From positions 74,028,001 to 74,092,000 of the forward strand of contig OX597819.1 of the NCBI GenBank assembly GCA_951406725.2: a stretch of 64,000 nt of DNA, written 5' to 3'. Made by a program: the position numbers and the translations under genes. The notes beneath the pieces are model-generated. The model had not been told where the DNA came from, made no database searches, and saw nothing but the letters and a program-made list of their open reading frames with translations. Within the stretch, counting starts at the first letter, position 1. Every line of letters begins with the position of its first letter. The DNA comes from Octopus vulgaris (lineage: Eukaryota). Of this stretch, positions 1,198 to 62,895 are shown one piece after another.

Positions 1198-3402
1198 TTA
1201 CATAAAGGATTCTAGAGTATTTTGAATGTGGTTTATATTTTCATGAAGTGTATGGAGTGTAATTATGGTAAACCATCGCTGCTTGGTTATTGGCACATCG
1301 TCCGGTAGCAAAAGACTGTTATCCACTTCGACATTTTGTTTGATGTTTGAAAATATCTGAAATATATGAAAAGAACATTGTAAATAAGAGATACACATTA
1401 ATTGATATTAATACACACACAAATACAAACACACACACACACACATACACATGTAATGAAACCTACTGGAGCTCACAGTCCATAGGAAACCCAACGTGGA
1501 GGAGATCTAAACATGGTCAATGTAGCTATTTCTCTCTACATTCAATACTATAGAGACATTTATACACACATATTATATATCACATTTAGTGATACTAACA
1601 ATATACGCACACATGTTAGTAATATTATTAAATTAGAACGATTCAAAATTATTCTAATTGTAGTAATTCCGTCAAATAATTAGACATTCTACGCAGATTA
1701 CAATTCTATGCATTGTTGTCTACATCATAAAAATGAGGAAAGTGTGCAGAACGTCAGCTGATTATCGTCTGCACGAAGTAATTTACGACAGAAATCTTAG
1801 AAACCCTGAAGAGATGTAATCTGTAATCTTTTAGTAGTCATGAAACACTTTGAAAAAATGCTTCGAAATGAGTATATATTACTCCGAGGGAATCTAAAGA
1901 ATAGAACCATTGATCTTTGACAACAGTTTCTGTAAATAAACTGACTATATCTTCCCGGATCAATTCTATGATATATATATTTAATATATTCCCATAAACA
2001 TGAGGATATTTTGGTGCTGTTTTATTGACCAGGGAATTTACCCACATTAATTTTTCGTAAGGAAATAAAAGAGAAATCGCGTGAATCTTCATCTAGGAAA
2101 ATATATTACGAGAATAATACTTACTGGTGATTCCAGAAAAAGTATCGTATCAACCAGGTAAGAAAGTGTTTGTTTTAAGTAACAATAAAATATGGCATCA
2201 GATGTGGGAGTGAGTTTAGAACAGGCAGCCGGATAATAACACTCTGTCTGTATACGTTTGGCAGGGGCACACAGCTGGTCATATTCTTTTTCCGTTTGAT
2301 TCTTCAACACAGTAACATATTGACTGAGGGTTACAGACATATTGGATAGAGCAATCTGTAATAAAGAATTGTGAGAAGCTTGAATTTTATTCGACACTGA
2401 TTGAGATTTCTTATAAAATATAGAATCGAGTTTAGATAGAAAGTGTATAAATATTTCAAGAAAATATGTTTGATAATATGTCCATACCTTGACTAAGTCT
2501 GTCTGCGCGAGGGTGATATTGTCTTGAATGTAGAGCTGAGGGAATGAAAGTTCCGTCTGGTTGAGTAGCCTATGAATAAAGTGAGGACAGGATACCGCAG
2601 ATGCCAATGGAGTGTTGCGGCACTGTAGAAAAACACGTGACATATTATGAGTCTGAGATTTGGACAGATAGGATTAGAAAAGAATGGAGTAGAAAATTCG
2701 TTTACACTGAACTAGTAGTTATAAATATTGATCTTTATGAGAACTTTATTAATATTTATGTGGGTAGTATTTTAAGGAATATATTATTGGAGTGGTATAA
2801 GAAGTTGTAATAATGATGATGATGATGATGATGATGATAACAATATCAAGTACAACAATAATAATAACAATAATATATGAATGAATATATGTAAACTTAC
2901 AAAAGAGTGCAAAGTAGTGTTCACAGCTACTGAGGCCTTGCGAGCCGTATCCAGTTGAGCTTTTATGTTATTTATTGGTATCGCTGTAGGTTTTATCGAC
3001 GCTCCATGGATGAATGAAATCCAGACTGAGAGACATAGGACCAATATATATTGCCAGTCTACGGGAAAATGGAAAAAAATACCATTAAGGAACATTTGGA
3101 AGGAAAGGGAGACATTGAAGGAATTGTTATTATTAAAAAGAAATGACTCAATAAGTCGCTGTTAGTTTTTCACGTGTAGTAAACAATGAGCTGAACATTT
3201 TGGAACTCAATAAACGATATTCACAAATATTTAACATAGTTCCACTAAACATAAACAATAATTTCTTGTGTTGTGTGTCAATGTGTCTATATAATTAATA
3301 GTAGTAAATTCATATATAATATGTGTGTGTATATTGTTAGTATTAGTAAATGTGATATATAATATGTGCGTTTAAAACCACTTATATTAAAGCCACTTAC
3401 AT

Positions 3403-3459
<57 letters not shown>

Positions 3460-3864
3460 TAGATAGATAGATAGATAGATGGATAGATAGATAGATAGAA
3501 AGAATTGGATACATAGATATATAGATAGAGAAATAGAGAGAGATAATTGCAAACATTGACAGGCACATACATATATTTACATATGTCTGTGCGCGTGTAT
3601 GTATGCGTATATGTGTGTGGGGTGTGTGTCATTGTCGCTCTCTCTTGAGTACCGCTTGATGACCAATGCTTGTGTGTATATATACAGGAAAAGTAACTCT
3701 TCGGTTAAAAGTTATCAACAGAATAAGTACATAGCTTTCAGAAATAAGTCCTCGAGTTGGTAAATTCGACCTAAACAGTTTTCAAGGTTGTGTCACGGCA
3801 TGGCCGCAAACCAGCGAACTAACACAAGAAATAGACAGTTTATATACGTATGTATGTATGTATG

Positions 3865-3898
<34 letters not shown>

Positions 3899-3948
3899 TA
3901 TATATATAGATGTATGTATATATATCTATATATATGTATATATGTGCG

Positions 3949-4025
<77 letters not shown>

Positions 4026-4520
4026 GGGTGGAAAGATTCGATGATTGTATGTGTTAACAATTACTTCCTCATGACAATATAACCTTTAATCTATTCAAGA
4101 TATCCTTCGACTGAATATTACCCGGCCGTATACACCTCATTTGGATTTACCACTTTTGAGGTTTCATTCGCAATGAAACACATGTAGCCCGAATTATTCT
4201 TTTCCATTCTGTAACTCTTATATTCTTTTCAGCAAACTCGACAAACCTTGTCGCCTACCGTAGAATATAAAAAGAACTTTTTTTCTTCGTATCATTTTTC
4301 GATAAAAAAAGATGAAATAATCCCCAATCTTCCGCCTGAATACACCGAAATTTGTTCCGAAAGTTGTTTTTTCTTAATATTTACTACAAATTGCTTGAAA
4401 TTAACTGTCTTCATACACCTCGATCCCTGGATCTTACATTTGTGTATGTGTGTGTATTCCTATAAATGTATGTGCGTATGTATGTATATGTTTATGTAAG
4501 TATGTAAATATGTGTTTCTG

Positions 4521-4554
<34 letters not shown>

Positions 4555-4623
4555 TGTATGTATGTATGTATGTATGTATGTATGTATGTATATAATGCCG
4601 ACCTCATACTTACAGTTATTCAT
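1198..4623 (-). CDS. Gene A: secreted 274-aa protein, putative long-chain four-helix (IL-6/G-CSF-like) cytokine, 4 coding exons
   Basis: Exons (minus): 4623-4614 (ATGAATAACT|gtaagt), 3058-2901 (cccgtag|..CTCTTTT|gtaagt), 2622-2125 (ttctacag|..TCACCA|gtaagt), 1356-1198 (tttcag|..TAA). All GT-AG, phases 1,0,0, 825 nt in frame: [27 protein letters not shown]...QNTLESFM*. The cytokine identity is inferred. Confidence 0.82.
3645..3835 (+). mobile_element. Diverged SINE body in intron 1 of minus-strand genes (also ~22120, ~31085, ~55545; related fragments at 14300-14428, ~30045, ~48100)
   Basis: Shared ..agaataagtac..aataagtcct..tcgac.taaa..gcatggccgca motif, which I recognise from octopus SINEs. 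Confidence 0.5.
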
Positions 4624-4726
4624 TTTGTTATTCATTTTTGTTATGAAAAATGTTTTAAGAGAACGTCAATTTGTAGTTCCTTTGCTTGTTACGAATTATT
4701 GTGTTTAAGTGACGATGGAAGATCGG

Positions 4727-5010
4727 CTTATATAGTTGTTTCAGCAGTGATAGGTTTGGAAAATCCCGTTCTATATGATGGCCTTCATGAAGCTGGAAGA
4801 TATCATCTTCCTTTATCTATTGTTTAAATTTAGTTTACGAAAATTGCTTGCTTTCATTTCTGGCGGAAGTTGAAGCTTGTGCCAATATTTTTTTTTCAAT
4901 GTATCAGAGATTTAGGTTTACGGAAAGAGGGAAGCTTTTATGAATGAACTATTTTTATCACAGTATATAGGTCACAGTCCAATTGCTAGTAGGTTACTTT
5001 CGCTTAACGG
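4727..5010 (-). promoter_or_regulatory. Gene A proximal promoter: TATA, NF-kB, IRF-like and STAT-like motifs
   Basis: TATATAAG at 4734-4727; GGGATTTTCC at 4767-4758; GAAATGAAAGC and AAGCGAAAGT further upstream; TTTCCGTAA at 4926-4918. Confidence 0.65.
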
Positions 5011-5504
5011 GAAGTAACCGAGCGGGAAATAGTGAGTTACAGTTTCATGTTATAAATCGTTGGTACTATCGCCGTCGCCAACGTCGTCGTCGTCATTATC
5101 ATTATCATCATCATGTGTATCAGCTCCATCATCTTCACGACGACGACGACGACCACCACCACTACCACCACCACCACCACAATCCTCACCATCACCACCG
5201 CCAGAACGAAATAAAGAAACCAATCACTCAAACATCGTATAATTCCCTGAAGCACAACTCAGATACCTTCAGAAATCAAGTGTCTAATATCCCAAAAAAC
5301 GAATACAGAAACTATTGAAAATAATTTACAACCAGCAATACCGACAGTCACAAATGGAGAAATGTGCTTAGAAGGCGGGGAAAGGGGAGGAGAAGAAGAG
5401 GAGGAAGGGGGTACGAAACAGAAGAAACAGCATTAATATAAGAATATGGCAAGAACAGAAATCTTCGACTAGATAATAGAAATCCTTGTTGCAAGCGGCC
5501 TGAT

Positions 5505-5690
5505 TCTCCGTCGGTTATTACGACGTGTGTTCCAGATGATACAATCAAACGAACAGAGTTTTCATGAAATTAACGTGCTAGCGGCTGAGTACTCCACAGA
5601 CACGTGTACACTTAACGTAATTCTGAAGGAGATTCAGTATGATAAAGAATGTGATAAGGCTGACCCCTTCTGAATTGCAGGTACAGCTCA
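5505..5690 (-). mobile_element. Old SINE 3'-half relic inside the bidirectional promoter region (also ~16410-16597 +, ~39743-39930 -, ~49795-49982 +, ~57380-57565 -)
   Basis: The reverse complement aligns by eye with 15120-15305 (tacgttaag.gtacacgtgtctgtggagtactcagcc..cacgttaatttca). Confidence 0.6.
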
Positions 5691-6095
5691 ACATTTATGA
5701 CTCGGGAATGGCAAACATAGAGACATACACCAATGTGACTCTCTCAATCCTTTCTTCGAAGCACAAACGTAAAGGACTTGGTCTTCAAAAGCCCAACCAT
5801 CAACACCATGCATTAATCAAAAACCCTCATGAAATATCTAGCAAGGATGAATTCACTTACCCACCCCAACCCCGAATTTTCTGTAAAAACTTGTGGAGAT
5901 AGCTGATCCGGAATACAAATTAGGCAAAGTTACAACCATTTAGAAATATCCGAGGGATAAAGACGGATATTAATTGCGAAACAAGAAATCTCTTATGTTA
6001 CATAATCTGGCCTAGTCGTAAGGAAAACTATATTGGTTAAACCGGAATCTCCTTGAGTGATAGAGAGAACATACACACACTTTATCCCGACCAAA

Positions 6096-6105
6096 GGGAA
6101 ATCCC
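6096..6105 (+). promoter_or_regulatory. Distal NF-kB consensus site (GGGAAATCCC) between the divergent genes
   Basis: Perfect GGGRNNYYCC match. A variant GGGAAATCCT lies at 6802-6811. Conserved at ~40333, ~57970 and in the orphan copies (15998-16007, ~49383). Confidence 0.45.
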
Positions 6106-7151
6106 ACTTAGTGAAAATTAACTAATTTGCGATGACAAGTTTATTTTTGTCCTGTTTGTCTTTGCAAAAGAGACAATCCAAAATATTTTTTAAAAATTGA
6201 GAAGTATTTTTTAAAAATAAATTCTCCAAAATTAACTTTGCTTTAAAAGACAATACTGAACAAAAGACAATAGTTTTTTTTACTTCCGTCTCGAAATACT
6301 TCTTAAGGAGAGATGAAAACGACCCTAAACTGAAAAATTCCGCCTCACATACATATTTTTATATTACTTTCTCTTTTTCTTATTTTTTAATTGAAAATTA
6401 GGTGAAACGGAATTTTGACATTTTCACTTCTATCTCTCAATGAATTGTTTCTAGTTTTGCTACTCGTTTATTAATTCTACACATATTAGTATAGAAATTG
6501 TGTGTGTATATGTGTGTGTATGTGTGTTTGTGTGTGTATGTATGTATTTATATAACACTGATCCATGTACATGCCTGCACATAAACGCGATGTATATCTT
6601 AAAGAATTGCTTCTTTTTCATTTTATCACGGGGCCTGTGTGTATGTGGTTGTTATTTTCTCTCCTTCATATTTCATATCAGCTATCTCCACAAGCATTTG
6701 GAGAAACAATTCCAGATGTGTTTTCAAATAAATTTCACCTTTGTTAGGTATTGCATGAGAGCATGAACGGGGCCTCATACACACACATTTTCCCGAGCAA
6801 AGGGAAATCCTACTTTGTGAAAATTAACTAATTTGCGTTAAGAAGTTTAATTTTTTTTCCTGTTTGTCTTTGCTTAAGAGACAATCCACGACAATTATAA
6901 CCTTTAATCTAATGAAGATATCCTTGGCATGATGATTAGGTGGCAGTATACACCTCACTTGGATTTTACCACTTCTGAAGTTTCACTCGCCATGAAACAC
7001 ATGTATCCCGGATTTTCCTTCTCCATTCCGCATTCTTTTTGCAAATTCGCGAAACCTTGTCGCCTACCGTAGAATTGCATGAAGCTGTCTTACTAAATCT
7101 CCATCCCTGGATCTTACATTTATATGTGTGTGTGTGTGTGTGTGCGTGTGC

Positions 7152-7216
<65 letters not shown>

Positions 7217-7388
7217 TGTGTTCCTATGCATGCATGTATTTATATATGTATGAATGTATATATGTATGTGCTGGTGGTGAAGATGATGATAATTATAATG
7301 ACGACGACGACTTTGGCGACGGCGATAGTAACAACGATTTGTAACATGAAACTGTAACTCACTATTCCTCGCTCGATTACCTCCCGTT

Positions 7389-7666
7389 AAGCGAAAGTAA
7401 CCTACTAGCAATTGGACTGTGACCTATATACTGTGATAAAAATAGTTCATTCATAAAAGCATTCCTCTTCGCGTAAACCTAAATCTCTGTCACACTGAAA
7501 GTAAAATATTAACACAACCTTCAACTTCCGCGAGAAATGAAAGCGAGCAATTTTTGTAAACTAAATTTAAACGGTAGATAAAGGAAGATGATATCTTCCA
7601 GCTTCATGAAGGCCATCACATAGAATGGGATTTTCCAAACCTATCACTTCAAAAACAACTATAAAA
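7389..7666 (+). promoter_or_regulatory. Gene B proximal promoter
   Basis: AAGCGAAAGT 7389-7398, GAAATGAAAGC 7534-7544, GGGATTTTCC 7627-7636, TATAAAA 7660-7666. ATG is 110 bp downstream of the TATA. Confidence 0.65.
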
Positions 7667-7769
7667 GCCGATATTCTATCGTCACTTAAACACAATAAAT
7701 TGTAACAAGCAAAGGAACTACAACATGACGTTCTCTCAAAACCTTTTTCATAACGAAAATTCACACAAA

Positions 7770-7788
7770 ATGAATAACTGTAAGTATG

Positions 7789-7867
<79 letters not shown>

Positions 7868-7889
7868 CAATTCATCCATTTATCTCTCA

Positions 7890-7965
<76 letters not shown>

Positions 7966-8917
7966 ATCCAATTCATCCATTTATCTCTCTCGCTCTCTCT
8001 CACTCTCTATCTATCTTTTTTTCTTTTTATTCTTTTAATTTTTTTTTTATTTATTTATTTTTTTCTTTTCTTCCCTTTTACGATCCCTCTTGATCGAAAA
8101 CCTACGCCACCCCCTTTTTTTCTTTTGTTTTTTGTTTTCTTCATCCCCCAAAAGCTCTACCTTGTTACTTGTCCCATCTGTGTGCAGCCCTGTGTGGCCA
8201 ATAAAGAAACTTATCTATCTATCTATCTATCTTTCTATGTATATAAGTGGTTTTAAATAGCCCCGTCATTCCTGTGATATATGAAATATCGCATCTTTCC
8301 CTAAAGTGAATATTTCTATTTTTATTACTGTTGAATACAAGCATCACAGTGCAGTGCATTGTTTTTATATCTATTATCTAAGTATCGCACCCAATTCCTA
8401 TGGTAGAACAAAACACAACAAAACACTTAAAACGTGGCCTTCTTCCACTCAGCCAAATATCTATTCACTTCCCTTTAACACACTACACAAACAATTATGG
8501 TTTATATTTAGTGGAACTATGTTAAATATTTGTGAATATCGTTTATTGAGTTCCAAAATGTTCAGCTCATTGTTTACTACACGTGAAAAACTAAGAGCGA
8601 CTTATCGAGTTATTTCTTTTTAATAATAACAATTCCTTCAATGTCTCCCTTTCCTTCTAAATGTTCCTTAATGGTATTTTTTTCTATTTTCCCGTAGACT
8701 GGCAATATATATTGGTCCTATGTATCTCAGTCTGGACTTCATTCATCCATGGAGCATCGATAAAACCTACAGCGATACCATTAAATAACATAAAAGCTCA
8801 GCTGGACGTGGCTCGCAGGGCCTCAATAGCCGTGAACACTACTTTGCATTCTTTTGTAAGTTTACATTTATTTCTTCATATATTATTGTTATTATTATTG
8901 TTATTCTTGATATTGTT

Positions 8918-8955
<38 letters not shown>

Positions 8956-8956
8956 T

Positions 8957-8991
<35 letters not shown>

Positions 8992-10687
8992 TATCATCAT
9001 CATCATCATTATTACAACTTAAAACACTCCAAAAATATATTACTTAAATTACTACCCACAAAATAATTAATAAAGTTCTCATAAAGATCAATATTTATAA
9101 CTATTCAGTGTAAACGGACTTCTACTCCGTTGTTTTCTAATCCTATGTCCAAATCTCAGACTCATAATATGTCACGTGTTTTTCTACAGTGCCACAACAC
9201 TCCAATGGCTTCTGCGGTATCCTGTCGTCAGTTTATTCATATGCTACTCAACCAGACGGAACTTACATTCCCTCAGCTCTACATTCAAGACAATATCACC
9301 CTCGCGCAGACAGACTTAGTCAAGGTATGGACATATTATCAAACACTTTTTCTTGAAATATTTATACACTTTCTATCTAAACTCGATTCTATATTTTATA
9401 AGAAATCTCAATCAGTGTCGAATAAAATTCAAGCTTCTCACAATTCTTTATTACAGATTGCTCTATCCAATATGTCTGCAATCCTCAGTCAATATGTTAC
9501 TGTGTTGAAAAACCAGACGGAAAAAGAATATGACCAGCTGTGTGCCCCTGCCAAACGTATACAGACAAAATGTTATTATCCCGCTGCCTGTTCTAAACTC
9601 ACTCCCACATCTGATGCCATATTTTATTGTTACTTAAAACAAACACTTTCTTACCTGATTGATACGATACTTTTTCTGGATTCACCGGTAAATATTATTA
9701 TCGTAATATATTTTTCTAGATGAAGATTCACGCGATTTCTCTTTTATTTCCTCACGAAAAATTAATGTAGATAAATGCCTTGTTCAATAAAACAGCACCA
9801 AAATATTCTCATGTTTATCGGAATTTATTAAATATATATCTCATAGAATAGATCCGGGAAGATATAGTCAGTTTATTTACAGAAATTGTTGACAAGTAAT
9901 ATATACTCATTTCGAAGCATTCTTTCAAAGTATTCTTGTATTTCATGACTACCAAAAAATTACAAATTACATCTCTTCAGGGTTTCTAAGATTTCTGTCG
10001 TAAAATACTTCCTGCAGACGATAATCAGCTTACGTTCGGCACACTTTCCTCATTTTTATAATGTAGACAACAATGCGTAGAATTGCAATCAGCGTAGAAT
10101 GTCTAATTATTTGAAAGAATTACTACAATTAGAATAATTTTGAACTTACTCTATCAAAATGTTATCCGTAATATATACGTGTTTTTGCAATTATGTCTAT
10201 ATTATTATTAGTAGTAAATTCATATATAAGATGTGTTTGTATATTGTTAGTATTGGTAAAGGTGATATATAATATGCACGTATAAATATCTCTATAGTAT
10301 TGAATGTAGGGGGAAAAAGCTACATTGACCATGTCTAGATCTCCTCCAATTAGGGCTTCCTATGGATAAATATATATATATATAGCTTTATAATGTGTGG
10401 ACTGTGAGCCACGTTATTCGGTTTCATTACATGTGTGTATGTGTGTATGTGAGTCTTCGTGTGTGTCTGTGTATTAATATCAATTAATGCTTATCCCTAA
10501 TTTACAATGTTCTTTTCATATATTTCAGATATTTTCAAACATCAAACAAAATGTCGAAGTGGATGACAGTCTTTTGCTACCGGATGATGTGCCAATAACC
10601 AAGCAGCGATGGTTTACCATAATTACACTCCATACACTTCATGAAAATATAAACCACATTCAAAATACTCTAGAATCCTTTATATAA
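7770..10687 (+). CDS. Gene B: paralogue, 274-aa secreted putative helical cytokine
   Basis: Exons 7770-7779, 8698-8855, 9190-9687 (donor gtaaat), 10529-10687. Intact frame. kB site and TATA upstream. Confidence 0.82.
8070..8210 (+). mobile_element. Probable 3' end of a non-LTR retroelement in intron 1 of B (also ~42275-42416 in F)
   Basis: Unique segment ending gccAATAAAgaaac followed by (CTAT)n. Absent from D and H intron 1. Confidence 0.35.
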
Positions 10688-11285
10688 TTGATTCCTGTTA
10701 TAATACTTCTGGAACCAATCTCAGTTAGAGAAAAATCAGATACAAGTGTATCGTTTCAATTATGTAGAAGTGTTTTAGCTTCACCACTTAATAATCATAT
10801 CGACGATTATATTAATCGTTAAATACCAATATTTCCATAAATTTTTATCTTATATTTTCTTATCACGTTTATAATCGTAAACAATATATTTCTCCTTTAT
10901 GAAATAAATATTTCTATTTAATATCGTGTTACATCGATGTTGTTGGGATTAAACCAATGGGACTGTGACGTATCAATCTATATATATTTTTCATATATAC
11001 ATACCTATATTTATCTATATATATCTTCATATATACATAACTGTACCTACGTTATTTAATTCATTTTTTATTTTTTATTTTCCGATTCCATTTCCTATTT
11101 TCTTAATCTTCATTATAATATATACACCATATTCCTATGCATTATACTAGGAAGACTTCCCTGCATACTCACACACACACACACACACACATATACGCCG
11201 ACATCATTTCTATTATTTATTATATAAATGAGAATTATATTTTTGTATGGAAACATTAAAGTGTTAATATTTTATTTTATATTCT
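10688..11285 (+). promoter_or_regulatory. Putative 3'UTR of gene B with triloop hairpin, ARE nonamers and poly(A) signal
   Basis: ACGATTA-TAT-TAATCGT at 10803-10819; TTATTTAAT at 11052-11060; TTATTTATT at 11213-11221; ATTAAA at 11255-11260 (AATAAA in D) followed by a T/GT-rich tract. A proximal AATAAA at 10903 is lost in D, F and G. Confidence 0.45.
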
Positions 11286-12220
11286 GTTGTTTGTGTTTTT
11301 GATTTTGTTCAATGAGTGGATTACAACTTCGTTACAGACATCCATATTATATTTACTACTTGTTCCATAAATCACATGAATAGATGTGTTTTATTTTATG
11401 AATTATTTCTTTTTATATTTCATGTTACAGTCATTTCTTTATCTTTATTATATATTTTATATACATTATATTACAATGTATTTCACCAGTAGGACATTTT
11501 TTTCTTCCCGTCTTCATAAAATAAGTACCATTTACGTAATGGGGTCGTCGAAATCCATTACACCTACCCCGAAATTGCTGGCCCATAGCCAAGTTGGAAA
11601 CTATCAATTCTTGTATCGAACCTGGGCCAGAGGGAATCGTTTCCTCTTTTGAATAAAGCAACTGAGAGGAAAATACGAAGATGATACAAACCTAGAAACA
11701 CCTTTCTTCTCTTTTTCGTTCTTCCAATGTTATGACGAGATTATGTCCTACGGCCCTCACTAGAGAAAATGCAGCAGGAGAAAATATTCCGGGACTCGTG
11801 CAATCCTCATCGAAGCTCATCGAAATACCACAATATTTTTGTCAATATTAGATCAATAATGATCACTGTTATTGAATAATCTTTTAGGAGAATCTCATAT
11901 TTTCTATAAGAAAATGTCTCCTTCAAACATCAGAAAGTTAGTTGGAAAAGTCGTCCTTTTTCTGCTCAGTGGTGGCCATGGTTAGAGCGTAGTGCCTGTG
12001 AAACATAGCGTTCCAATCAAGCCGTGACATAATAGTCTTGATGCGATCAGAAATACGAGAGCTGCGTGTCTCGTTCTCATTTCTTGCTGTGGTGTTTCAC
12101 TGAGTGCAGCCATGTCAGAGACGCACAGCTTTACTCGTAACTATGTATATTATTATTCAGTCTATTTCAAGATTTCTTGCCAATATAGAAAGAACAAGTT
12201 TCTAACCTAGCTACACACAC

Positions 12221-12318
<98 letters not shown>

Positions 12319-12348
12319 TGTATGTTTGTATGTATGTATGTATATATA

Positions 12349-12435
12349 GGCTCTGGCCTGGCTGTGGTAAGAAGATTTCTTTCGATCTACACGCTTGCAG
12401 GTTCCGTCCCACTGTGTGGCTCCCGTGTGAGTGGA
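12349..12435 (+). mobile_element. Degenerate tRNA-like SINE head (also ~27963, ~46499)
   Basis: tggctgtggtaagaag...ggttc.gtcccactgtgtggc A/B-box pattern. Confidence 0.45.
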
Positions 12436-12483
12436 TTTGGTAGATGGAAATTGAAAGAAACACGTCGTATATATATATATATG

Positions 12484-12537
<54 letters not shown>

Positions 12538-12572
12538 GATATACAAAGAGTGAGAGAGAAGGAGAGAGAGAA

Positions 12573-12623
<51 letters not shown>

Positions 12624-12667
12624 AAGAGAGAGAGAGAAAGAGAGAGAGACAAGCAGAGATGTATGTA

Positions 12668-14267
12668 CAATGGCGAAAATTAATTTAAGACCGATGATAA
12701 AAGTTCTATTTCTTATAAAATATTTTGTTACTGACACCATACAAATCCTTTTCATCTGTTACACCTCATGCAGAATGTATTTCTCTTCCGAATGATGCAG
12801 GCAATAACTATGTTTATACAACTTGAATAATTCTAATGCTAAATTCATAGAATCGTTTCAAATTTACCGGCAAAATTAGTTTAAGACCACGTAATATGTA
12901 TGCAAAGATTTTTGCCAAAATGGGTGGTCACACAACTAGCCTAACTGGACGATATAGTGTTATAATTTAACGTTATTATACAATTGATTAATAAGGGGGG
13001 AAACAACGTCACCTCAGTCCAGTCACGAGAGCAAAAATCGTAGTACTTCACCAGCAAGCAACTAAAGTGCAGTAAAACGGCTTGCGTGAAAGCGTGGATG
13101 TTATACTCGGAGACTGGTCAATATAAAGATCGGCAAAGACTGGTGCCCCAAGAAAAACATCGGCACAGTTGGAACGTCGAATCCACCGACTTCGGAAGGC
13201 AACCGACAGCCGTTGATAGTTGTAAACAATTGTCCATCGAGAATTGTGTTATTTTTGCACTACCAAACCGTCCGCAACCTTTTGAGAGAAATTGGACTAC
13301 ATGGATGAATCGCTAGGAAAAAGCCAATAATATCCGAAAGAAATCGACTCAAACGCCTTAATTTCGCAAAAAGCCATGCTCAATGAACTGCCGTAGATTG
13401 GTGCAGGTTCCCTTTGAGTGAAGAGTCACGCTTCTGTATATTTGGATCAGATGGTAAAACATACGTCAGACATTGCCCAACCGAGGAATTCCATCCCAAA
13501 TACGTGAAAAAGCGGCGCAAGCGGTGGGTGGGGATGGGTTTGTGATGGTGAGGGCGGCATTTAGTAGTTTTGGTGTTGGCCCTCTAGTTAAAGTTGATGG
13601 AAAGCTAAATAGTGTAGGTTATATGAATCTACCATAGGATAATGATGTGCCATATTTGACTCACCAAATGCCTTCGGGGCTATTTATCAGAAGGACAATA
13701 TTCCTGTGCACATAGCCCCCAAGTTATGGAATTTTTTTATCACCATAATATTGACGTAATCGAATGGCTTCCCCAGAGCCCGGACCTGAATCCGATCGAC
13801 AACCTGTGGAATTATGTTTCCCAAATGTCTATGCTAATAAACCATCTAATCTAAAACAATTATTCGATTGGCAAAATATTTCCATACAATTTTGTTTTCA
13901 CTTAGCGAATTCAATGCCGAGACGTTGTTCAGCCGTTATTAAGAATAAAGGCTACGGCACAAAGTACTAATCTGTATTTCGTTCTTGTTGCTCAGTTTTG
14001 CTACAATCTTAAGCTTTAAATAAAATTATAATGATATGGTTTTAAACTAATTTTGCCGGTAAATTTGAAACGGTTATATTAATTTAGCATTAGAATTCAT
14101 CAAGTTGTATAAAAATAGTTATTGTCTGCATCATTCGAAAGAGAAATAAATTCTGCATAAGGTGTAAGATAAGATAAAGATAAAGATAATTTGTATGGTG
14201 TTAGTAACAAAATATTTTGTAAGAAATAGAAATTTTAACAACGGTCTTGCATTTATTTTCGCCAGTG
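12668..14267 (+). mobile_element. Decayed Tc1-family (IR/DR-type) DNA transposon
   Basis: TA|CAATGGCGAAAAT...ATTTTCGCCAGTG|TA; ~220-bp TIRs with internal direct repeats (aaaattaRtttaagacc). Transposase relics SxESRF, KDN, W..QSPDLNPI, NSMPRRC..VIKNKGYGTKY, with frameshifts and stops. Confidence 0.9.
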
Positions 14268-14873: not shown

Positions 14874-14931
14874 TATATTATATTAATAAATTTGTGTGTG
14901 TGCATGTGTATGTGTGTGTGTATGTGTGAGT

Positions 14932-15315
14932 GGAGGTGCAATGGCCCAGTGGTTAGGGCAGCGGACTCGCGGTCGTAGGAACGCGGTTTCCATTCCCAGA
15001 CCGGGCGTTGTGAGTGTTTATTGAGCGAAAACACCTAAAGCTCCATGAGGCTCCGGCAGGGATGGCGGTCATCCCTGCTGTACTCTTTCACCACAACTTT
15101 CTCTCACTCTTACTTCCTGTTTCTGTTGTACCTGTATTTCAAAGGGCCGGCCTTGTCACTCTCTGGGTCACGCTGAATATCCCCGAGAACTACGTTAAGG
15201 GTACACGTGTCTGTGGAATGCTCAGCCACTTACACGTTAATTTCACGGGCAGGCTGTTCCGTTGATCGGATCAACCGGAACCCTCGTCGTCGTAACTGAC
15301 GGAGTGCTTCCATCC
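14932..15315 (+). mobile_element. Full-length tRNA-derived SINE with target-site duplication
   Basis: A-box TGGCCCAGTGG, B-box-like GGTTTCCATTCC, flanked by GTATGTGTGAGT on both sides. Absent at the equivalent site ~30250. Confidence 0.8.
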
Positions 15316-15834
15316 GTATGTGTGAGTGTGTGTTTGTGTGTGTGTGTCTGTGTCTGTGTGTATGAGAGAGAGAGAAAGAGGGAGGGAGAGAAAGCATTTA
15401 CTATGAGAAAAGTACAACATTAAAATAGAAATATCTTTTAACAGCGAACTCGTTAGTAGGAGTGAGAAAGAGAGAAGAAAGAAAACAAATGGAAAACGAA
15501 TCGGCCTTACTTCTGAAAATGTATACCCTACGCCAAATAGTGCGACTCTATTCAGAATGGGCAAAGCCCATCACATCGGGCTTTACAACATGATAATCTT
15601 TGGTGCCATTTCACAAATATTTCTTGAAGACAAACAATTTTTACATGTCAGAGAATATCTGCTCTGTAAACTTCGGATGTTGCTCCCCACGCGTTGTCAA
15701 AACAGCAAGAGGAAATAAACAACTTTATCGATACGACGATTCCATACAAATTTCGCTCTTTAGACTTCTATAGCTCATCTTAGCGAATTCATCCTAGAAA
15801 TATATGTGTACTTATCAATTAATTTGTCCATATT

Positions 15835-17408: not shown

Positions 17409-17615
17409 TGATTGTGATTGTACGATACTCTGTTTAGTATCGTACAATGTTCATTATCCGGCAATGTTCCACATCAATGTTTATGATATCATGCTATTCA
17501 TTATCTAGAAGTATTCATTGTATATTCGACATCATATATTCGACATCAAATTCCCACACTTACATATCACAGCACGTTCTCTCAAACTCCCTCGTATTTC
17601 TAATCAGTTATTCAT

Positions 17616-17674
<59 letters not shown>

Positions 17675-18198
17675 TACACACACACACACATACATACATA
17701 CATACATCTAGGTTAGAAACCAGTTCTTTCTCTATTGGCAAGAAATGCTATGTTTGACACGCTATGTTTGACAGGCACTACTCTCTAACCATGGCCACCT
17801 CTGAGCAGAAAAAGGACAACTTTTCCAACTAACTATCCGATGTATTGAAGGAGACATTTTCTTATAGAAAATATAAGATTCTTCTAAAAGATTATTCAAT
17901 GCAAGTGTGGCGATATAACAATGATCATAATTGATCTAATATTGACAAAAATTTTGTGGTATTTCTATAAGCTTCGAGTAAAAATGCTCGAGTCCCGGGA
18001 TATTTTCTCCTGCTGCATTTTCTCTAGTGAGGGCCGTAGGACATAATCTCGTCATAACATTGGAAGAACAAACAAGAGAAGAAAGGCTTTTCTAGGTTTG
18101 CATCATCTTTGTATTTTCCTCTCAGTTGCTTTATTCAAAAGACAAAACGATTCCCTCTGGCACAAGTTGGATGCAAGAATTGATAGTTTCCAACTTTG

Positions 18199-18884
18199 GA
18201 TATGGGCCAGCAATTTCGGGGGAGGTGTAATGGATTTCGACGACCCCATTACGTAAATGGTACTTATTTATGATGACAGGAAGACTGAATATCCTACAGG
18301 TGAGATACATTGTAATATAATGTATATAAAATATATATTACAGATAAAGAAATGACTGTAACATAAAATATAAAATGAAATTATAAAATAAATCACAACA
18401 ATAGTTGTACACATATATTTCTAGGATGAATTCGCTAAGATGAGCTATAGAAGTCTAAAGAGCGAAATTTGTATGGAATCGTCGTATCGATAAAGTTGTT
18501 TATTTCCTCTCGCTCTCTTGACAACGCGTGGAGAGCAACATCCGAAGTTTACAGAGCAGATATTCTCTGACATGTAAAAATTGTTTGTCTTCAAGAAATA
18601 TTTGTGAAATGGCTCCAAAGATTATCATGTTGTAAAGCCCGACGTGATGGGCTTTGCCCATTCTGAATACAGTCACACTATTGTTGTGATTTATTTTATA
18701 ATTTCTTTTTATATTTTATGTTACAGTCATTTCTTTATCTTTAATATATATTTTATATACATTATATTACGATGTATCTCACCTGTAGGATATTCAGTCT
18801 TCCTGTCATCATAAAATAAGTACCATTTACGTAATGGGGTCGTCGAAATCCATTACACCTCCCCCGAAATTGCTGGCCCATATC
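18199..18884. repeat. ~207-bp inverted repeat enclosing a 271-bp templated insert (second copy 51590-52274)
   Basis: Arms 18199-18405 and 18677-18884. The spacer is the reverse complement of ~15541-15811. Confidence 0.8.
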
Positions 18885-19578: not shown

Positions 19579-19872
19579 TTACATAAAGGATTGTAGAGTA
19601 TTTTGAATGTGGTTTATATTTTCATGAAGTGTATGGAGTGTAATTATGGTAAACCATCGCTGCTTGGTTATTGGCACATCATCCGGTAGCAAAAGACTGT
19701 CATCCACTTCGACATTTTGTTTGATGTTTGAAAATATCTGAAATATATGAAAAGAACATTGTAAATAAGAGATACACATTAATTGATATTAATACACACA
19801 CGCATACAAACACACACACACGATACACGTGCAATGAAACCTACCGGGGCACACAGTCCACACCCTATAAAG

Positions 19873-19916
<44 letters not shown>

Positions 19917-21330
19917 ATATATATATTTATTTATCCATAGTTCACCCAACGTGGATGAGATCTAAACATGGTCAATGTAGCTATTTCTCTCTACATTCAA
20001 TACTATAGAGACATTTATACACACATATTATATATCACATTTACTAATACTAATAATATACGCACATATGTTATATATGAATTTACTACTAATAATAATA
20101 TAGACACATATGCACACACACGTATGTATATATTACGTATAATATTTTGATAGACTAAGTAATATTATTAAATTATAACGGTTCAAAATTATTCTAATTG
20201 TAGTAATTCCGTCAAATAATTAGACATTCTACGAAGATTACACATATTCGCATTGTTGTCTACATCATATAAATGAGGAAAGTGTGCAGAACGTAAGCTG
20301 ATTATCGTCTGCACGAAGTATTTTACGACAGAAATCTTAGAAACCCTGAAGATGAAACACAAGAATACTTTGAAAGAATGCTTCGAAATGAGTATATATT
20401 ACTCCGAGGGAATCTAAAGAATAGCACTTTTGGACTTTTGACAACAGTTTCTGTAAATAAACTGACTATATCTTCTCGGATCAGTTCTATGAGATATATA
20501 TTTAATATATTCCGATAAACATGAGGATATTTTGGTGCTGTTTTATTGAACAAGGCATTTATCTACATTAATTTTTCGCGAGGAAATGAAAGAGAAATCG
20601 CGTGAATATTCATCTAGGAAAATATATTACGAGAATAATACTTACCGGTGAATCCAGAAAAAGTATCGTATCAACCAGGTAAGAAAGTGTTTGTTTTAAG
20701 TAACAATAAAATATGGCATCAGATGTGGGAGTGAGTTTAGAACAGGCAGCGGGATAATGACACTCTGTCTGTATACGTTTGGCAGGGGCACACAGCTGGT
20801 CATATTCTTTTTCCGTCTGATTCTTCAACACAGTAACATATTGACTGAGGGTTGCAGACATATTGGATAGAGCAATCTGTAATAAAGAATTGTGAGAAGC
20901 TTGAAATTGATTCGACACTAATTGAGATTTCTTATAAAATATAGAATCGAGTTTAGATAAAAAGTGTATAAATATTTCAAGAAAATGTGTCTGATAATAT
21001 GTCCATACCTTGACTAAGTCTGTTTGCGCGATGGTAATATTGTCTTGAATGTTGAGCTGAGGGAATGTAAGTTCCGTCTGGTTGGGTAGCATATGAATAA
21101 ACTGACGACAGGATACCGCAGAAGCCATTGGAGTGTTGTGGCACTGTAGAAAAACACGTGACATATTATGAGTCTGAGATTTGGACATAGGATTAGAAAA
21201 CAAGTGAGTAGAAGTCCGTTTACACTGAACTAATAGTTATAAATATTGATCTTTATGAGAACTTTATTAATTATTATGTGGGTAGTATTTTAAGTAATAT
21301 ATTATTGGAGTGGTATAAGAAGTTGTAATA

Positions 21331-21365
<35 letters not shown>

Positions 21366-21585
21366 AACAATATCAAGTATAACAATAATAATAACAATAA
21401 TATATGAATGAATATATGTAAACTTACAAAAGAGTGCAAAGTAGTGTTCACGGCTATTGAGGCCCTACGAGCCGCCTCCAGCTGAGCTTTTATGTTATTT
21501 ATTGGTATCGCTGTCGGTTTTATAGACGCTCCATGGATGAATGAAATCCAGACTGAGAGACATAGGACCAATATATATTGCCAGT
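19579..21585 (-). pseudogene. Gene C: exons 2-4 intact, exon 1 (ATG) and promoter deleted
   Basis: Exons 21585-21428, 21143-20646, 19737-19579 are open. Intron 1 joins directly to the 5'UTR of gene D at 22974-22978, so there is no ATGAATAACT exon, TATA or kB site (compare the G/H pair). Confidence 0.75.
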
Positions 21586-22304: not shown

Positions 22305-22338
<34 letters not shown>

Positions 22339-23042: not shown

Positions 23043-25625
<2,583 letters not shown>

Positions 25626-35140: not shown

Positions 35141-38852
<3,712 letters not shown>

Positions 38853-42029: not shown

Positions 42030-42048
42030 ATGAATAACTGTAAGTATG

Positions 42049-42146
<98 letters not shown>

Positions 42147-43127
42147 TTATCTATCTATCTTTCTATCCAATTCATCCATTTATCTCTCTCGCTCTCTCTC
42201 ACTCTCTATCTATCTTTTTTTCTTTTTATTCTTTTAATTTTTTATCTTATTTATTTATTTATTTTTCTCTTTTCTTCCCTTTTGCGATCCCTCTTGATCG
42301 AAAACCTACGCCACCCCCTTTTTTTTCTTTTGTTTTTTGTTTTCTTCATCCCCCAAAAACTCTACCTTGTAACTTATCCCATCTGTGTGCAGCCCTGTGT
42401 GGCCAATAAAGAAACTTATCTATCTATCTATCTATCTATCTTTCTATCTATATAAGTGGTTTTAAATAGCCCCGTCTTTCCTGTGATATATGAAATATAG
42501 CATCTTTCCCTAAAGTGAATATTTCTATTTTTATTACTGTTGAATACAAGCATCACAGTGCAGTGAATTGTTTTTATTTCTATTATTTAATTATCACACT
42601 CAATTCCTATGGTAGAACAAAACACAACAAAACACTTAAAACGTGGCCTTCTTCCACTCAGCCATGTATCTATTCACTTCCCTTTAACACACTACACAAG
42701 AAAGTATGGTTTATATTTAGTGGAACTATGTTAAATATTTGTGAATATCGTTTATTGAGTTCCAAAATGTTCAGCTCATTGTTTACTACACGTGAAAAAC
42801 TAACAGCGACTTATCGAGTTATTTCTTTTTAATAATAACAATTTCTTCAATGTCTCCCTTTCCTTCCAAATGTTCCTTAATGGTATTTTTTTTCTATTTT
42901 CCCGTAGACTGGCAATATATATTGGTCCTATGTATCTCAGTTTGGACTTCATTCATCCATGGAGCATCGATAAAACCTACAGCGATACCAATAAATAACA
43001 TAAAAGCTCAGCTGGACGTGGCTCGCAGGGCCTCAATAGCCGTGAACACTACTTTGCATTCTTTTGTAAGTTTACATTTATTTCTTCATATAATATTTTT
43101 ATTATTATTGTTATTCTTGATATTGTT

Positions 43128-43191
<64 letters not shown>

Positions 43192-44864
43192 ACATCATTA
43201 TTACAACTTAAAACACTCCAATAATATATTACTTAAATTACTACCCACATAATAATTAATAAAGTTCTTATAAAGATCAATATTTATAACTATTCAGTGT
43301 AAACGGACTTCTACTCCGTTGTTTTCTAATCCTATCTGTCCAAATCTCAGACTCATAATATGTCACGTGTTTTTCTACAGTGCCACAACACTCCAATGGC
43401 TTCTGCGGTATCCTGTCCTCACTTTATTCATATGCTACTCAACCAGACGGAACTTACATTCCCTCAGCTCTACATTCAAGACAATATCACCATCGCGCAG
43501 ACAGACTTAGTCAAGGTATGGACATATTATCAAACATATTTTCTTGAAATATTTATACACTTTATATCTAAAGTCGATTCTATATTTTATAAGAAATCTC
43601 AATCAGTGTCGAATAAAATTCAAGCTTCTCACAATTCTTTATTACAGATTGCTCTATCCAATATGTCTGCAACCCTCAGTCAATATGTTACTGTGTTGAA
43701 GAACCAGACGGAAAAAGAATATGACCAGCTGTGTGCCCCTGCCAAACGTATACAGACAAAATGTTATTATCCCGCTGCCTGTTCTAAACTCACTCCCACA
43801 TCTGATGCCATATTTTATTGTTACTTAAAACAAACACTTTCTTACCTGGTTGATACGATACTTTTTCTGGATTCACCGGTAAGTATTATTATCGTAATAT
43901 ATTTTCCTAGATGAAGATTCACGCGATTTCTCTTTTATTTCCTCACGAAAAATGAATGTAGATAAATGCCTTGTTCAATAAAACAGCACCAAAATATCCT
44001 CATGTTTATCGGAATATATATTAAATATATATCTCATAGAATAGATCCGGGAAGATATGGTCAGTTGATTTAGAGAAATTGTTGACAAGTAATATATACT
44101 CATTTCGAAGCATTCTTTCAAAGTATTCTTGTATTTCATGACTACCAAAAAATTACAAATTACATCTCTTCAGGGTTTCTAAGATTTCTGTCGTAAAATA
44201 CTTCCTGCAGACGATAATCAGCTTACGTTCTGCACACTTTCCTCATTTTTATAATGTAGACAACAATGCATAGAATTGCAATCAGCGTAGAATGTCTAAT
44301 TATTTGAAAGAATTACTACAATTAGAATAATTTTGAACTTACTCTATCAAAATGTTATCCGTAATATATACGTGTTTTTGCATTTATGTCTATATTATTA
44401 TTAGTAGTAAATTCATATATAAGATGTGTTAGTATATTGTTAGTATTGGTAAATGTGATATATAATATGCTCGTATAAATATCTCTATAGTATTGAATGT
44501 AGGGGGAAAAAGCTACATTGACCATGTCTAGAACTCCTCCAAGTAGGGCTTCCTATGGATAAATATATTCGGTTTCATTACATGTGTGTGTGTGTGTATG
44601 TGTGTGTGTATGTGTGTGTGTGTGAGTGAGTCTTCGTGTGTGTCTGTGTATTAATATCAATTAATGCTTATCCCTACTTTACAATGTTCTTTTCATATAT
44701 TTCAGATATTTTCAAACATCAAACAAAATGTCGAAGTGGATGACAGTCTTTTGCTACCGGACGATGTGCCAATAACCAAGCAGCGATGGTTTACCATAAT
44801 TACACTCCATACACTTCATGAAAATATAAACCACATTCAAAATACTCTAGAATCCTTTATGTAA
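42030..44864 (+). CDS. Gene F: paralogue, 274-aa secreted putative helical cytokine
   Basis: Exons 42030-42039, 42908-43065, 43381-43878, 44706-44864. GT-AG, intact. Confidence 0.82.
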
Positions 44865-52963: not shown

Positions 52964-53257
52964 TTACATAAAGGATTGTAGAGTATTTTGAATGTGGTTT
53001 ATATTTTCATGAAGTGTATGGAGTGTAATTATGGTAAACCATCGCTGCTTGGTTATTGGCACATCATCCGGTAGCAAAAGACTGTCATCCACTTCGACAT
53101 TTTGTTTGATGTTTGAAAATATCTGAAATATATGAAAAGAACATTGTAAATAAGAGATACACATTAATTGATATTAATACACACACGCATACAAACACAC
53201 ACACACGATACACATGCAATGAAACCTACCGGGGCTCACAGTCCACACCTTATAAAG

Positions 53258-53311
<54 letters not shown>

Positions 53312-54729
53312 ATATATATATATTTATTTATCTATAGTTAACCCAACGTGGATGAGATCTAAACATGGTCAATGTAGCTATTTCTCTCTACATTCAATAC
53401 TATAGAGACATTTATACACACATATTATATATCACATTTACTAATACTAATAATAAACGCACATATGTTATATATGAATTTACTACTAATAATAATATAG
53501 ACACATATGCACACACACGTATGTATATATTACGTATAATATTTTGATAGACTAAGTAATATTATTAAATTATAACGGTTCAAAATTATTCTAATTGGAG
53601 TAATTCCGTCAAATAATTAGACATTCTACGAAGATTACACATATTCGCATTGTTGTCTACATCATATAAATGAGGAAAGTGTGTAGAACGTAAGCTGATT
53701 ATCGTCTACACGAAGTATTTTACGACAGAAATCTTAGAAACCCTGAAGATGAAACACAAGAATACTTTGAAAGAATGCTTCGAAATGAGTATATATTACT
53801 CCGAGAGAATCTAAAGAATAGCACTTTTGGACTTTTGACAACAGTTTCTGTAAATAAACTGACTATATCTTCCCGGATCAGTTCTATGAGATATATATTT
53901 AATATATTCCGATAAACATGAGGATATTTTGGTGCTGTTTTATTGAACAAGGCATTTATCTACGTTAATTTTTCGTGAGGAAATGAAAGAGAAATCGCGT
54001 GAATCTTCATCTAGGAAAATATATTACGAGAATAATACTTACCGGTGAATCCAGAAAAAGTATCGTATCAACCAGGTAAGAAAGTGTTTGTTTTAAGTAA
54101 CAATAAAATATGGCATCAGATGTGGGAGTGAGTTTAGAACAGGCTGCCGGATAATGACACTCTGTCTGTATACGTTTGGCAGGGGCACACAGCTGGTCAT
54201 ATTCTTTTTCCGTCTGATTCTTCAACACAGTAACATATTGACTGAGGGTTGCAGACATATTGGATAGAGCAATCTGTAATAAAGAATTGTGAGAAGCTTG
54301 AATTTGATTCGACACTAATTGAGATTTCTTATAAAATATAGAATCGAGTTTAGATAAAAAGTGTATAAATATTTCAAGAAAATGTGTTTGATAATATGTC
54401 CATACCTTGACTAAGTCTGTCTGCGCGATGGTGATATTGTCTTGAATGTTGAGCTGAGGGAATGTAAGTTCCGTCTGGTTGAGTATCATATGAATAAACT
54501 GACGACAGGATACCGCAGAAGCCATTGGAGTGTTGTGGCACTGTAGAAAAACACGTGACATATTATGAGTCTGAGATTTGGACAGATAGGATTAGAAAAC
54601 AAGTGAGTAGAAGTCCGTTTACACTGAACTAATAGTTATAAATATTGATCTTTATGAGAACTTTATTAATTATTATGTGGGTAGTATTTTAAGTAATATA
54701 TTATTGGAGTGGTATAAGAAGTTGTAATA

Positions 54730-54770
<41 letters not shown>

Positions 54771-55742
54771 AACAATATCAAGTATAACAATAATAATAAC
54801 AATAATATATGAATGAATATATGTAAACTTACAAAAGAGTGCAAAGTAGTGTTCACGGCTATTGAGGCCCTGCGAGCCGCCTCCAGCTGAGCTTTTATGT
54901 TATTTATTGGTATCGCTGTCGGTTTTATAGACGCTCCATGGATGAATGAAATCCAGACTGAGAGACATAGGACCAATATATATTGCCAATCTACGGGAAA
55001 ATGGAAAAAAATACCATTAAGGAACATTTGGAAGGAAAGGGAGACATTGAAGGAATTGTTATTATTAAAAAGAAATAAGTCGTTAAGTCGCTGTTAGTTT
55101 TTCACGTGTAGTAAACAATGAGCTGAACATTTTGGAACTCAATAAACGATATTCACAAATATTTAACATAGTTCCACTAAATATAAACCATAATTTCTTG
55201 TGTAGTGTGTCAATGTGTCTATATAATTAATAGTAGTAAATTCATATGTAAGATGTGTGTGTATGTTGTTAGTATTAGTAAATGTGATATATAATATGTG
55301 CGTTTAAAACCACTTATATTAAAGCCACTTACATTGATAGATAGAATGATAGATAGATACTTAGATGGATAGATAGATAGAAAGAATTGGATAGATAGAT
55401 AGAAAGCATTGGATAGATAGATATATAGATAGAGAAAGAGAGATAGATAATTGCATACATTGACAGGGACATACATATATTTACATATTTCTGTGCGCGT
55501 GTATATGTGTGTATATGTGTGTGGGCGGTGTCATTGTCGCTCTCTCTTGAGTACCGCTTGATGGCCAATGCTTGTGTGTTTATATACAGGAAAAGTAACT
55601 CTTCGGTAAAAAGTTACCAACAGAATAAGTACATGGCTTTCTCAAATAAGTCCTCGGGATGGTAAATTCGACCTAAACAGTTTTGAAGGTTGTGTCACAG
55701 CATGGCCGCAAACCAGCGGACTAAAACAATTAATAGACAGTT

Positions 55743-55776
<34 letters not shown>

Positions 55777-55878
55777 TGTATGTATGTATGTATGTATGTA
55801 TGTATGTATGTTTGTTTGTATGTATGTATATGTATGTGTGTATATATATCTATATATATGTATGTATATGTGTGTATC

Positions 55879-55930
<52 letters not shown>

Positions 55931-56425
55931 CAGGTGGAAAGATTCGATGTTTGTATGTGTTAACAATTACTTCCTCATGACAATATAACCTTTAATCTAT
56001 TCAAGATATCCTTCGACTGAATATTACCCGGCCGTATACACCTCATTTGGATTTACCACTTTTGAGGTTTCATTCGCCATGAAACACATGTAGCCCGAAT
56101 TATTCTTTTCCATTCTGTAACTCTTATATTCTTTTTCGCAAACTCGACAAACCTTGTCGCCTACCGTAGAATATAAAAAGAACTTTTTTCTTCGTATCAT
56201 TTTTCGATAAAAAAAGATGAAATAATCCCCAATCTTCCGCCTGAATACACCGAAATTTGTTCCGAAAGTTGATTTTTCTTAATATTTACTACGAATTGCT
56301 TGAAATTAACTGTCTTCATACACCTCGATCCCTGGATCTTACATTTGTGTATGTGTGTGTATTCCTATAAATGTATGTGCGTATGTATGTATGTGTTTAT
56401 GTAAGTATGTAAATATGTGTTTATG

Positions 56426-56459
<34 letters not shown>

Positions 56460-56496
56460 TGTATATAATGCCGACCTCATACTTACAGTTATTCAT
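52964..56496 (-). CDS. Gene G: paralogue, 274-aa secreted putative helical cytokine
   Basis: Exons 56496-56487, 54990-54833, 54540-54043, 53122-52964. GT-AG, intact. Promoter present. Confidence 0.82.

Positions 56497-59974: not shown

Positions 59975-62895
<2,921 letters not shown>

Follow-up and report, generated by a model that had tools for sequence, protein, structure and literature searches.

In the parts of the literature cited here, an IL6R/Domeless-like receptor, JAK and STAT are reported from Mollusca with no known IL6-like ligand (PMC13203501). Ligands of the IL-6 family, Unpaired aside, are described in the cited portions of three sources as not found in invertebrates or outside the jawed vertebrates (PMC13203501, PMC8226699, PMC12284397). 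The Unpaired (Upd) proteins are secreted protostome ligands of the gp130-like receptor Domeless and act upstream of JAK/STAT, and in the same source the aromatic residue of receptor site III, at the start of helix D, is W157 in IL-6 and W144 in vIL-6 (PMC7378365). The cited account of the vertebrate genes gives five exons for IL-6, places the first intron of IL-11 7 nt beyond the start codon, and defines an IL-6/G-CSF/MGF signature, C-x9-C-x6-G-L-x2-[FY]-x3-L (PMC3271213). Type I interferons, as summarized in the section cited, have five helices and intron phases of 0-0-0-0 (10.64898/2026.05.30.728932).

Here we describe a gene from a 64-kb stretch of Octopus vulgaris DNA, referred to throughout as the window, and compare it with these systems. 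The gene occupies positions 7770..10687 of the window on the forward strand. It is one of eight related copies there and is designated c2.

Gene structure and the third intron

The initial annotation had spliced a 10-nt ATG micro-exon and three open reading frames into a protein of 274 residues. All four segments exist with GT-AG splice sites and sum to 825 nt in one frame (274 codons plus a stop), so that the coordinates, splice sites and frame of that model stand; its treatment of 9190..9687 as a single exon does not, because a 132-nt intron lies inside it. The gene c2 is real, and its model needed this one correction. In the corrected gene the coding sequence is divided among five exons (10, 158, 135, 231 and 159 nt), the intron phases are 1-0-0-0 and the product has 230 residues.

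The coding part of exon 1 (7770..7779, 10 nt) ends at a phase-1 donor, GTAAGT, and annotated homologues start with the identical residues. Exon 2 (8698..8855, 158 nt) encodes a predicted signal peptide, extending to about residue 22-23, and predicted helix A (residues 32-59). Exon 3 (9190..9324, 135 nt, residues 57-101) covers the long AB loop, including C57, C68 and a short helix (68-78). It is followed by the phase-0 intron 3 (9325..9456, 132 nt), which is open in frame and at times retained. Exon 4 (9457..9687, 231 nt, residues 102-178) encodes helix B, helix C and, between the two, an insert carrying C130, C140, C146 and C159; every invariant column of the family (E125, C130, A133, P143, C146, C159) falls in this exon. 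The coding part of exon 5 (10529..10687, 159 nt including the stop) encodes the CD loop and helix D (201-229), the latter containing W206. A candidate polyadenylation signal, AATAAA, lies 3' of the gene at 10903..10908, on the same plus strand as all of these features. AU-rich elements in the 3' flank are no more frequent than chance (five ATTTA seen, 6.5 expected) and were discarded. The predicted mature chain is about 208 residues (23.6 kDa). A hydrophobic stretch, the hydropathy peak, covers residues 8-18 and no membrane segment follows it; judged by hydropathy, the product would be a secreted protein with a mature chain in the range of 170-210 residues.

Introns 2, 3 and 4 of c2 follow residues 56, 101 and 178. 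The first of these sites closes helix A, the second lies at the beginning of helix B and the third comes shortly after helix C. Human IL-6 likewise has introns where helix A ends, where B starts and where C ends. Vertebrate genes of the IL-6/IL-11/G-CSF type have later introns in phase 0, and G-CSF has a five-exon layout. The plan of five exons, with a tiny phase-1 first exon and phase 0 in the rest, is thus present in c2, and the later three introns are kept in the paralogue L003. An IL-6-like order of motifs and introns had been proposed from the four-exon model. The helix-B motif in that proposal proved to be intronic, whereas the corrected five-exon layout is closer to IL-6 and IL-11 than the four exons were.

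Transcript evidence comes from contigs of four of 24 listed runs, which are RNA by guess only and from which splice ratio, strand and tissue cannot be read. In X2, one contig has exon-2 letters attached at 9190 and its match ends at 9324, leaving six letters unplaced, and another contig skips 841 nt between GT and AG at 9687/10529. Two of the junctions proposed initially, 8855/9190 and 9687/10529, are therefore seen in contigs, and the third, 7779/8698, is supported by the conserved ATG-N7-GTAAG of exon 1 and by the annotated proteins P0003, P0004 and P0007, which share that start. Contigs of X2 and X4 also run from within intron 3 into exon 4, and retention or pre-mRNA therefore exists. In X1 the introns are covered evenly, a DNA-like pattern. 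The annotated O. vulgaris protein P0008 includes residues 57-230 of c2 letter for letter, with intron 3 spliced out.

Several observations bear on the third intron. It has an AAG|GTATGG donor, a branch-like CTCAC at -20 and a TTACAG acceptor, and its GC content is 26% versus 34-47% in the exons. In L003 this position is occupied by an intron of 1085 nt whose fourth codon is already a stop, and the exons around it are of 135 and 231 nt, then 159 nt, as in c2; its exon 3 comprises the same 45 codons. In L002 the intron at this position is 3308 nt long. None of the 11 non-cluster homologues that span the junction carries the 44 residues that the intron would encode. Most annotated relatives lack these residues as well, and among annotated cluster-type proteins ten junctions are spliced here and three retain the intron. 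Three copies (L023, L028 and L029) have a stop, a +2 or a -1 shift inside the intron, and exons 3, 4 and 5 are gap-free in the alignment. The intron signals, the long introns of L003 and L002, the absence from homologues and the disrupted copies together lead us to the gene of five coding exons and 230 residues. In two distant paralogues, L005 and L006, intron 3 is short (about 125 nt in L006) and its read-through is faintly like that of c2, possibly through AT bias.

The intron nevertheless keeps an open frame in each of the 16 intact copies, against about 5% of shuffles, although the copies are not independent, and a 274-residue form may therefore arise as a side product of the gene. Read as coding, the intron shows 3 synonymous and 17 non-synonymous variants (ratio 1.43, p 0.8, with low power). 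An AlphaFold2 model of the 274-residue form keeps the helical bundle (pLDDT 77.3, pTM 0.70, Z 14.9), but the intron-derived residues form a low-confidence extra helix (pLDDT 54-70), and 157 residues align to IL-11 versus 156 for the 230-residue model. Because the 274-residue model keeps intron 3, the helix B that had been proposed from it is translated intron, and the actual predicted helix B spans residues 97-129 of the 230-residue protein.

Predicted fold and comparison with long-chain cytokines

We modeled the fold with AlphaFold2 on P0004, a paralogue that shares 215 of 230 residues with c2 (about 93%), from a shallow alignment of 17 rows. The best model has pLDDT 83.2 and pTM 0.78, and the five models range from 78.9 to 83.2 in pLDDT. 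It predicts a signal helix followed by helices at 32-59, 97-129, 153-175 and 201-229; the AB and CD loops are long. A VIA structural search covered 48,161 chains; its aligner warns that a Z below about 13 may reflect a generic helical bundle, and nine rows lie above that value. Long-chain class I cytokines take ranks 1-14, every match down to rank 26 is a helical cytokine, and the highest-scoring non-cytokine reaches Z 7.9. The leading matches are IL-11 (Z 15.2, rmsd 2.9, 156 residues aligned), LIF (Z 15.1, rmsd 3.4, 162 aligned), CLCF1 (Z 15.0, rmsd 3.0, 162 aligned) and IL-6 (Z 14.7, rmsd 2.9, 149 aligned), with CNTF at Z 13.9; placental lactogen (13.4), growth hormone (11.2) and leptin (10.3) score lower. 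Sequence identity in the structural matches is 8-17%. In Foldseek, long-chain cytokines or hormones, led by G-CSF and LIF, account for 43 of the 46 rows shown, with a best E value of 0.018 and none reaching 0.001. The end-to-end alignments with IL-11, LIF and IL-6, from which the topology was read rather than from the coordinates, indicate an up-up-down-down arrangement in which the AB and CD loops are long.

A search with ESM features of residues 23-230 points the same way. Its first match scores 0.92 (204 of 256 features shared) and is a cluster in which 11% of members carry the LIF_OSM family; the ten best named matches all belong to one family or clan, and the clusters found include LIF/OSM, IL-12 alpha (0.90), cardiotrophin, IL-6/G-CSF and IL-11. 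One mostly molluscan cluster, with the Pfam IL6 family on 11% of its members, was matched at 0.88. The 166-residue "exon 3" of the four-exon model gave no usable match in this search. The initial proposal of a long-chain four-helix protein of the IL-6/G-CSF class is thus supported by AlphaFold2, VIA, Foldseek and the ESM search, and on these predictions the protein almost certainly adopts the long-chain helical cytokine fold.

Against individual members of this class the comparison is more mixed. With the IL-6 family (IL-11, LIF, CLCF1, IL-6, CNTF, OSM and IL-27 p28) the modeled octopus protein shares its fold along the entire mature chain (Z 13.2-15.2, rmsd about 3), a signal peptide, predicted here, a five-exon gene with a tiny phase-1 first exon, and a pair of cysteines at the start of the AB loop. 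It differs in its low identity (8-16%), in the absence of a Pfam match, in an extra four-cysteine insert of 20-25 residues between helices B and C, in the position of its tryptophan, apparently four residues off the site-III register, and in being encoded by about 30 tandem copies. Neither the IL-6/G-CSF/MGF signature nor the Pfam IL6/GCSF families match the protein, in which the pair C130-x9-C140 is part of the BC insert and is not followed by a G-L-x2-[FY] tail. A site-III Trp had also been claimed. W157 of IL-6 and W144 of vIL-6 correspond to residue 202 by chain-end register, which assumes an ungapped helix D, and residue 202 is T, I or N in the cluster. There is a Trp in predicted helix D, as claimed, but by this register W206 (W in 6 of 10 rows) would sit about four residues, or one turn, past the site-III position.

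G-CSF provides the top Foldseek rows, with probability 1.00 and TMt 0.77 for 1cd9_A and up to 0.80, but the E values are 0.018 or weaker and its NMR representative reaches just Z 8.7 in VIA. The alpha chains IL-12 p35 and IL-23 p19 score Z 12.2-12.6, and the IL-12 alpha cluster is matched at 0.90 in the ESM search. With four long predicted helices, intron phases of 1-0-0-0 and interferon Z scores of 9-10 versus 15, the protein falls outside the type I interferon class. Upd1-3 would be its counterparts in the role we propose, that of a Domeless-type ligand upstream of JAK/STAT; no Unpaired match appeared in Pfam scans or library searches.

The cluster, its promoters and its relatives

The eight copies in the 64-kb window alternate in orientation, and their products are 92-100% identical per exon, which bears out the earlier claim of a gene family. 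Six are intact. Copy c1 (1198..4623, minus strand) is intact and stands head to head with c2, and c5 (35141..38852, minus), c6 (42030..44864, plus), c7 (52964..56496, minus) and c8 (59975..62895, plus) are intact as well. In c3 (19579..21585, minus) exons 2-5 are open, but neither exon 1 nor a promoter was found, and c4 (23043..25625, plus) has CG at its first acceptor and a promoter replaced upstream of about -70. Two segmental duplications of 94-97% identity join parts of the window, 14874-22978 with 48273-56412 and 3893-13057 with 38124-47172. The first ends at about 22978, where a deletion apparently took exon 1 of c3 and the promoters of c3 and c4. Broken transposase-like frames, presumably of Tc1/mariner type, lie at 28710-29504 and 13044-13316, both on the plus strand.

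A search of the genome gave 47 matches, of which 24 are full length (87-100% identity) and lie on C6 at 73.98-74.28 Mb. Of 30 cluster copies examined, 16 pass a strict test of intactness and encode 13 distinct proteins of 86-100% identity. Three copies at C6 74.11-74.20 Mb (L021, L025 and L029) have GC in place of GT at the donor of intron 4, together with a variant exon 1; L021 and L029 are probably intact too. The cluster holds about 30 copies, a count that identical pairs could inflate. An assembly artefact as the source of the whole cluster is ruled out by the 13 distinct proteins from 16 intact copies and by the cluster-type genes of two other Octopus species, at least two in each. The database models P0008, P0010 and P0031 join exons of adjacent copies into chimeras of 318-368 residues, and annotation of the cluster is faulty.

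The 16 intact copies show a deficit of amino-acid changes, with 40 synonymous and 83 non-synonymous variants (pN/pS 0.59, p 0.006); for exon 3 alone the ratio is 1.92. All six cysteines (57, 68, 130, 140, 146 and 159) are invariant. The seven variable positions of predicted helix A share a single face, rotated some 150 degrees away from the hydrophobic side (p 0.002), a pattern that fits a receptor-binding site II and equally fits plain tolerance of change at the surface.

The promoter of c2 has a TATA-like box, TATAAAA, at 7660..7666 (plus strand), 110 nt upstream of the ATG. A candidate kB-type site, GGGATTTTCC, at 7627..7636 (plus) lies 33 nt upstream of this box and 143 nt upstream of the ATG; we take it to be identical in all ten letters to the kB site of human IL-6. 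Such a promoter site is found in 6 of 8 copies in the window and in 14 of 16 intact cluster copies, which are not independent of one another, and would be expected by chance in about 1% of 200-nt stretches. No kB consensus was seen at the promoter position in the five loci of older paralogues that were scanned, although exon 1 could not be placed in these. Spacer DNA contains a second type of kB-like site (GGGAAATCCC or GGGATTTCCC) at window positions 6096, 15998, 40334, 49383 and 57970, and three of these sit between head-to-head copies. The 11 kB matches in the window are all of either the promoter type or the second, spacer type. A STAT-like palindrome was set aside as common by chance (28%).

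The family is present in octopods and cuttlefish. A search of a library of 1.84 billion sequences gave 17 matches, the named ones from Octopus, Argonauta and Sepia. Because this search used one query, the single 274-residue protein, and no profile, the coleoid restriction is a lower bound on the range. The Octopus proteins among the named homologues are all "uncharacterized" or "hypothetical". Older paralogues lie on C6 at 71.1, 74.30, 124.0, 124.8 and 131.4 Mb. In a tree of 19 rows, the cluster-type proteins of O. sinensis and O. bimaculoides form a group (93/99) separate from three or more older lineages; several of its branches are long, and its deeper forks are weakly placed. The annotated forms of two older paralogues, P0016 and P0032, skip exon 3 and with it the AB loop, as real isoforms or as prediction errors. 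The Pfam scan assigned the protein to no significant family, the sequence search of the PDB had no cytokine among its matches, and the library searches revealed no sequence link to bivalve proteins. A literature search, which included six locus ids of the family and did not cover subscription journals or supplements, found no report of the octopus family. An oyster IL12p35-like protein has reportedly been described, though our literature search did not find it, and the octopus family may therefore not be the first molluscan helical cytokine.

Proposed function and alternatives

The best explanation overall, and a likely one, is that this gene of about 30 copies and five exons encodes a secreted cytokine of the IL-6/IL-11/LIF type, induced by NF-kB, that serves as a ligand of the Domeless/gp130-JAK/STAT pathway. 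The kB-type site near the TATA box would drive induction through NF-kB. The secreted protein would have one disulfide between C57 and C68 and two more within the BC insert, and might be N-glycosylated at up to five sites. It would bind a Domeless/gp130-type receptor through helices A and C and so activate JAK/STAT, and the extra copies may provide a higher dose or varied affinities for the receptor. Signaling through a class I receptor and JAK/STAT is likely as a component of this account, and a mainly immune or injury role is favored with rather less assurance.

We looked for the receptor and the pathway in the genome with Pfam models applied exon by exon, an insensitive approach whose negative results do not show absence. 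For IL6Ra-bind there were only candidates ridden with stops, for Lep_receptor_Ig the best match was a generic Ig exon, and LIFR_D4 and EpoR_lig-bind revealed no receptor gene. The listing for fn3 was filled by a long array on C2 and contained no receptor; this array, at C2:122.23-122.42 Mb, comprises more than 100 FN3 exons of a single domain each. The DNA pattern for G-x-W-S-x-W-S has 55 matches in the genome, and none of the 40 that were read lies in an FN3-like frame. STAT_bind found nothing in the genome. An exon similar to the F2 part of a JAK FERM domain was matched weakly at C22:21688026-21688190 (L082; Pfam E 2.4e-5, JAK1 E 0.003).

An unlikely alternative keeps the fold and the receptor class but makes the protein a hormone, a growth factor or a neural survival factor, comparable to leptin, prolactin, CNTF or LIF. 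Fold leaves function undecided, with placental lactogen (13.4), CNTF (13.9), growth hormone (11.2) and leptin (10.3) all close in VIA, and the older single-copy paralogues lack a kB consensus at the promoter position in the stretches scanned. The amplified clade, however, has its kB-type site beside the TATA box, ligands of the gp130 family take the top VIA ranks, and the cluster shows recent amplification with many broken copies. Such amplification is more typical of defence genes.

It is quite improbable that the protein is a secreted four-helix protein, such as a component of saliva or venom or a decoy, whose resemblance to cytokines is convergent or whose signaling has been lost. Neither Pfam nor PDB sequence searches link it to cytokines, its named homologues come from coleoids only, the vertebrate matches showed no such cysteine-rich insert, and tandem amplification occurs in venom genes too. 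Yet the modeled chain aligns sequentially over its full length with long-chain cytokines, far above other bundles, the ESM features match independently, and the gene is laid out in five exons, phases 1-0-0-0, with its introns at the borders of helices. We prefer common descent to convergence mainly because fold and gene layout agree.

The least probable reading makes the 274-residue form, with the 132-nt piece as coding sequence, the main functional product of the cluster clade; it would account for the frame open in 16 of 16 intact copies, the 274-residue RefSeq isoform P0007, the X2 and X4 contigs that cross into exon 4 and the bundle that survives in the model, but it is hardly credible for a piece that has intron signals and low GC, is missing from 11 of 11 older homologues, shows no deficit of amino-acid changes at its low power, is disrupted in three copies with clean flanking exons, and is spliced out of c2's own annotated protein, P0008.

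Returning to the cytokine reading, the protein is a new coleoid branch of the long-chain helical cytokines and not an IL-6 orthologue. A broader view is evenly poised: that these are the missing molluscan ligands of Domeless/gp130-like receptors, that they share descent, including intron positions, with vertebrate IL-6, IL-11 and G-CSF, so that a long-chain cytokine gene of five exons would predate the protostome-deuterostome split, and that the octopus has expanded one kB-driven branch into an interferon-style cluster of about 30 copies in which one face of helix A varies.

The gene would supply a concrete ligand candidate for a molluscan receptor-JAK-STAT module that lacks a canonical ligand, an open problem in the portion of the source cited (PMC13203501). 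The candidate is known to databases merely as uncharacterised, and its predicted fold and its gene layout both point to the IL-6 type. The combination of five exons with phases 1-0-0-0, followed by folding, provides a recipe for searches in other invertebrates. In the octopus itself, a farmed and laboratory animal, the family may offer a marker of inflammation or of the response to wounds.
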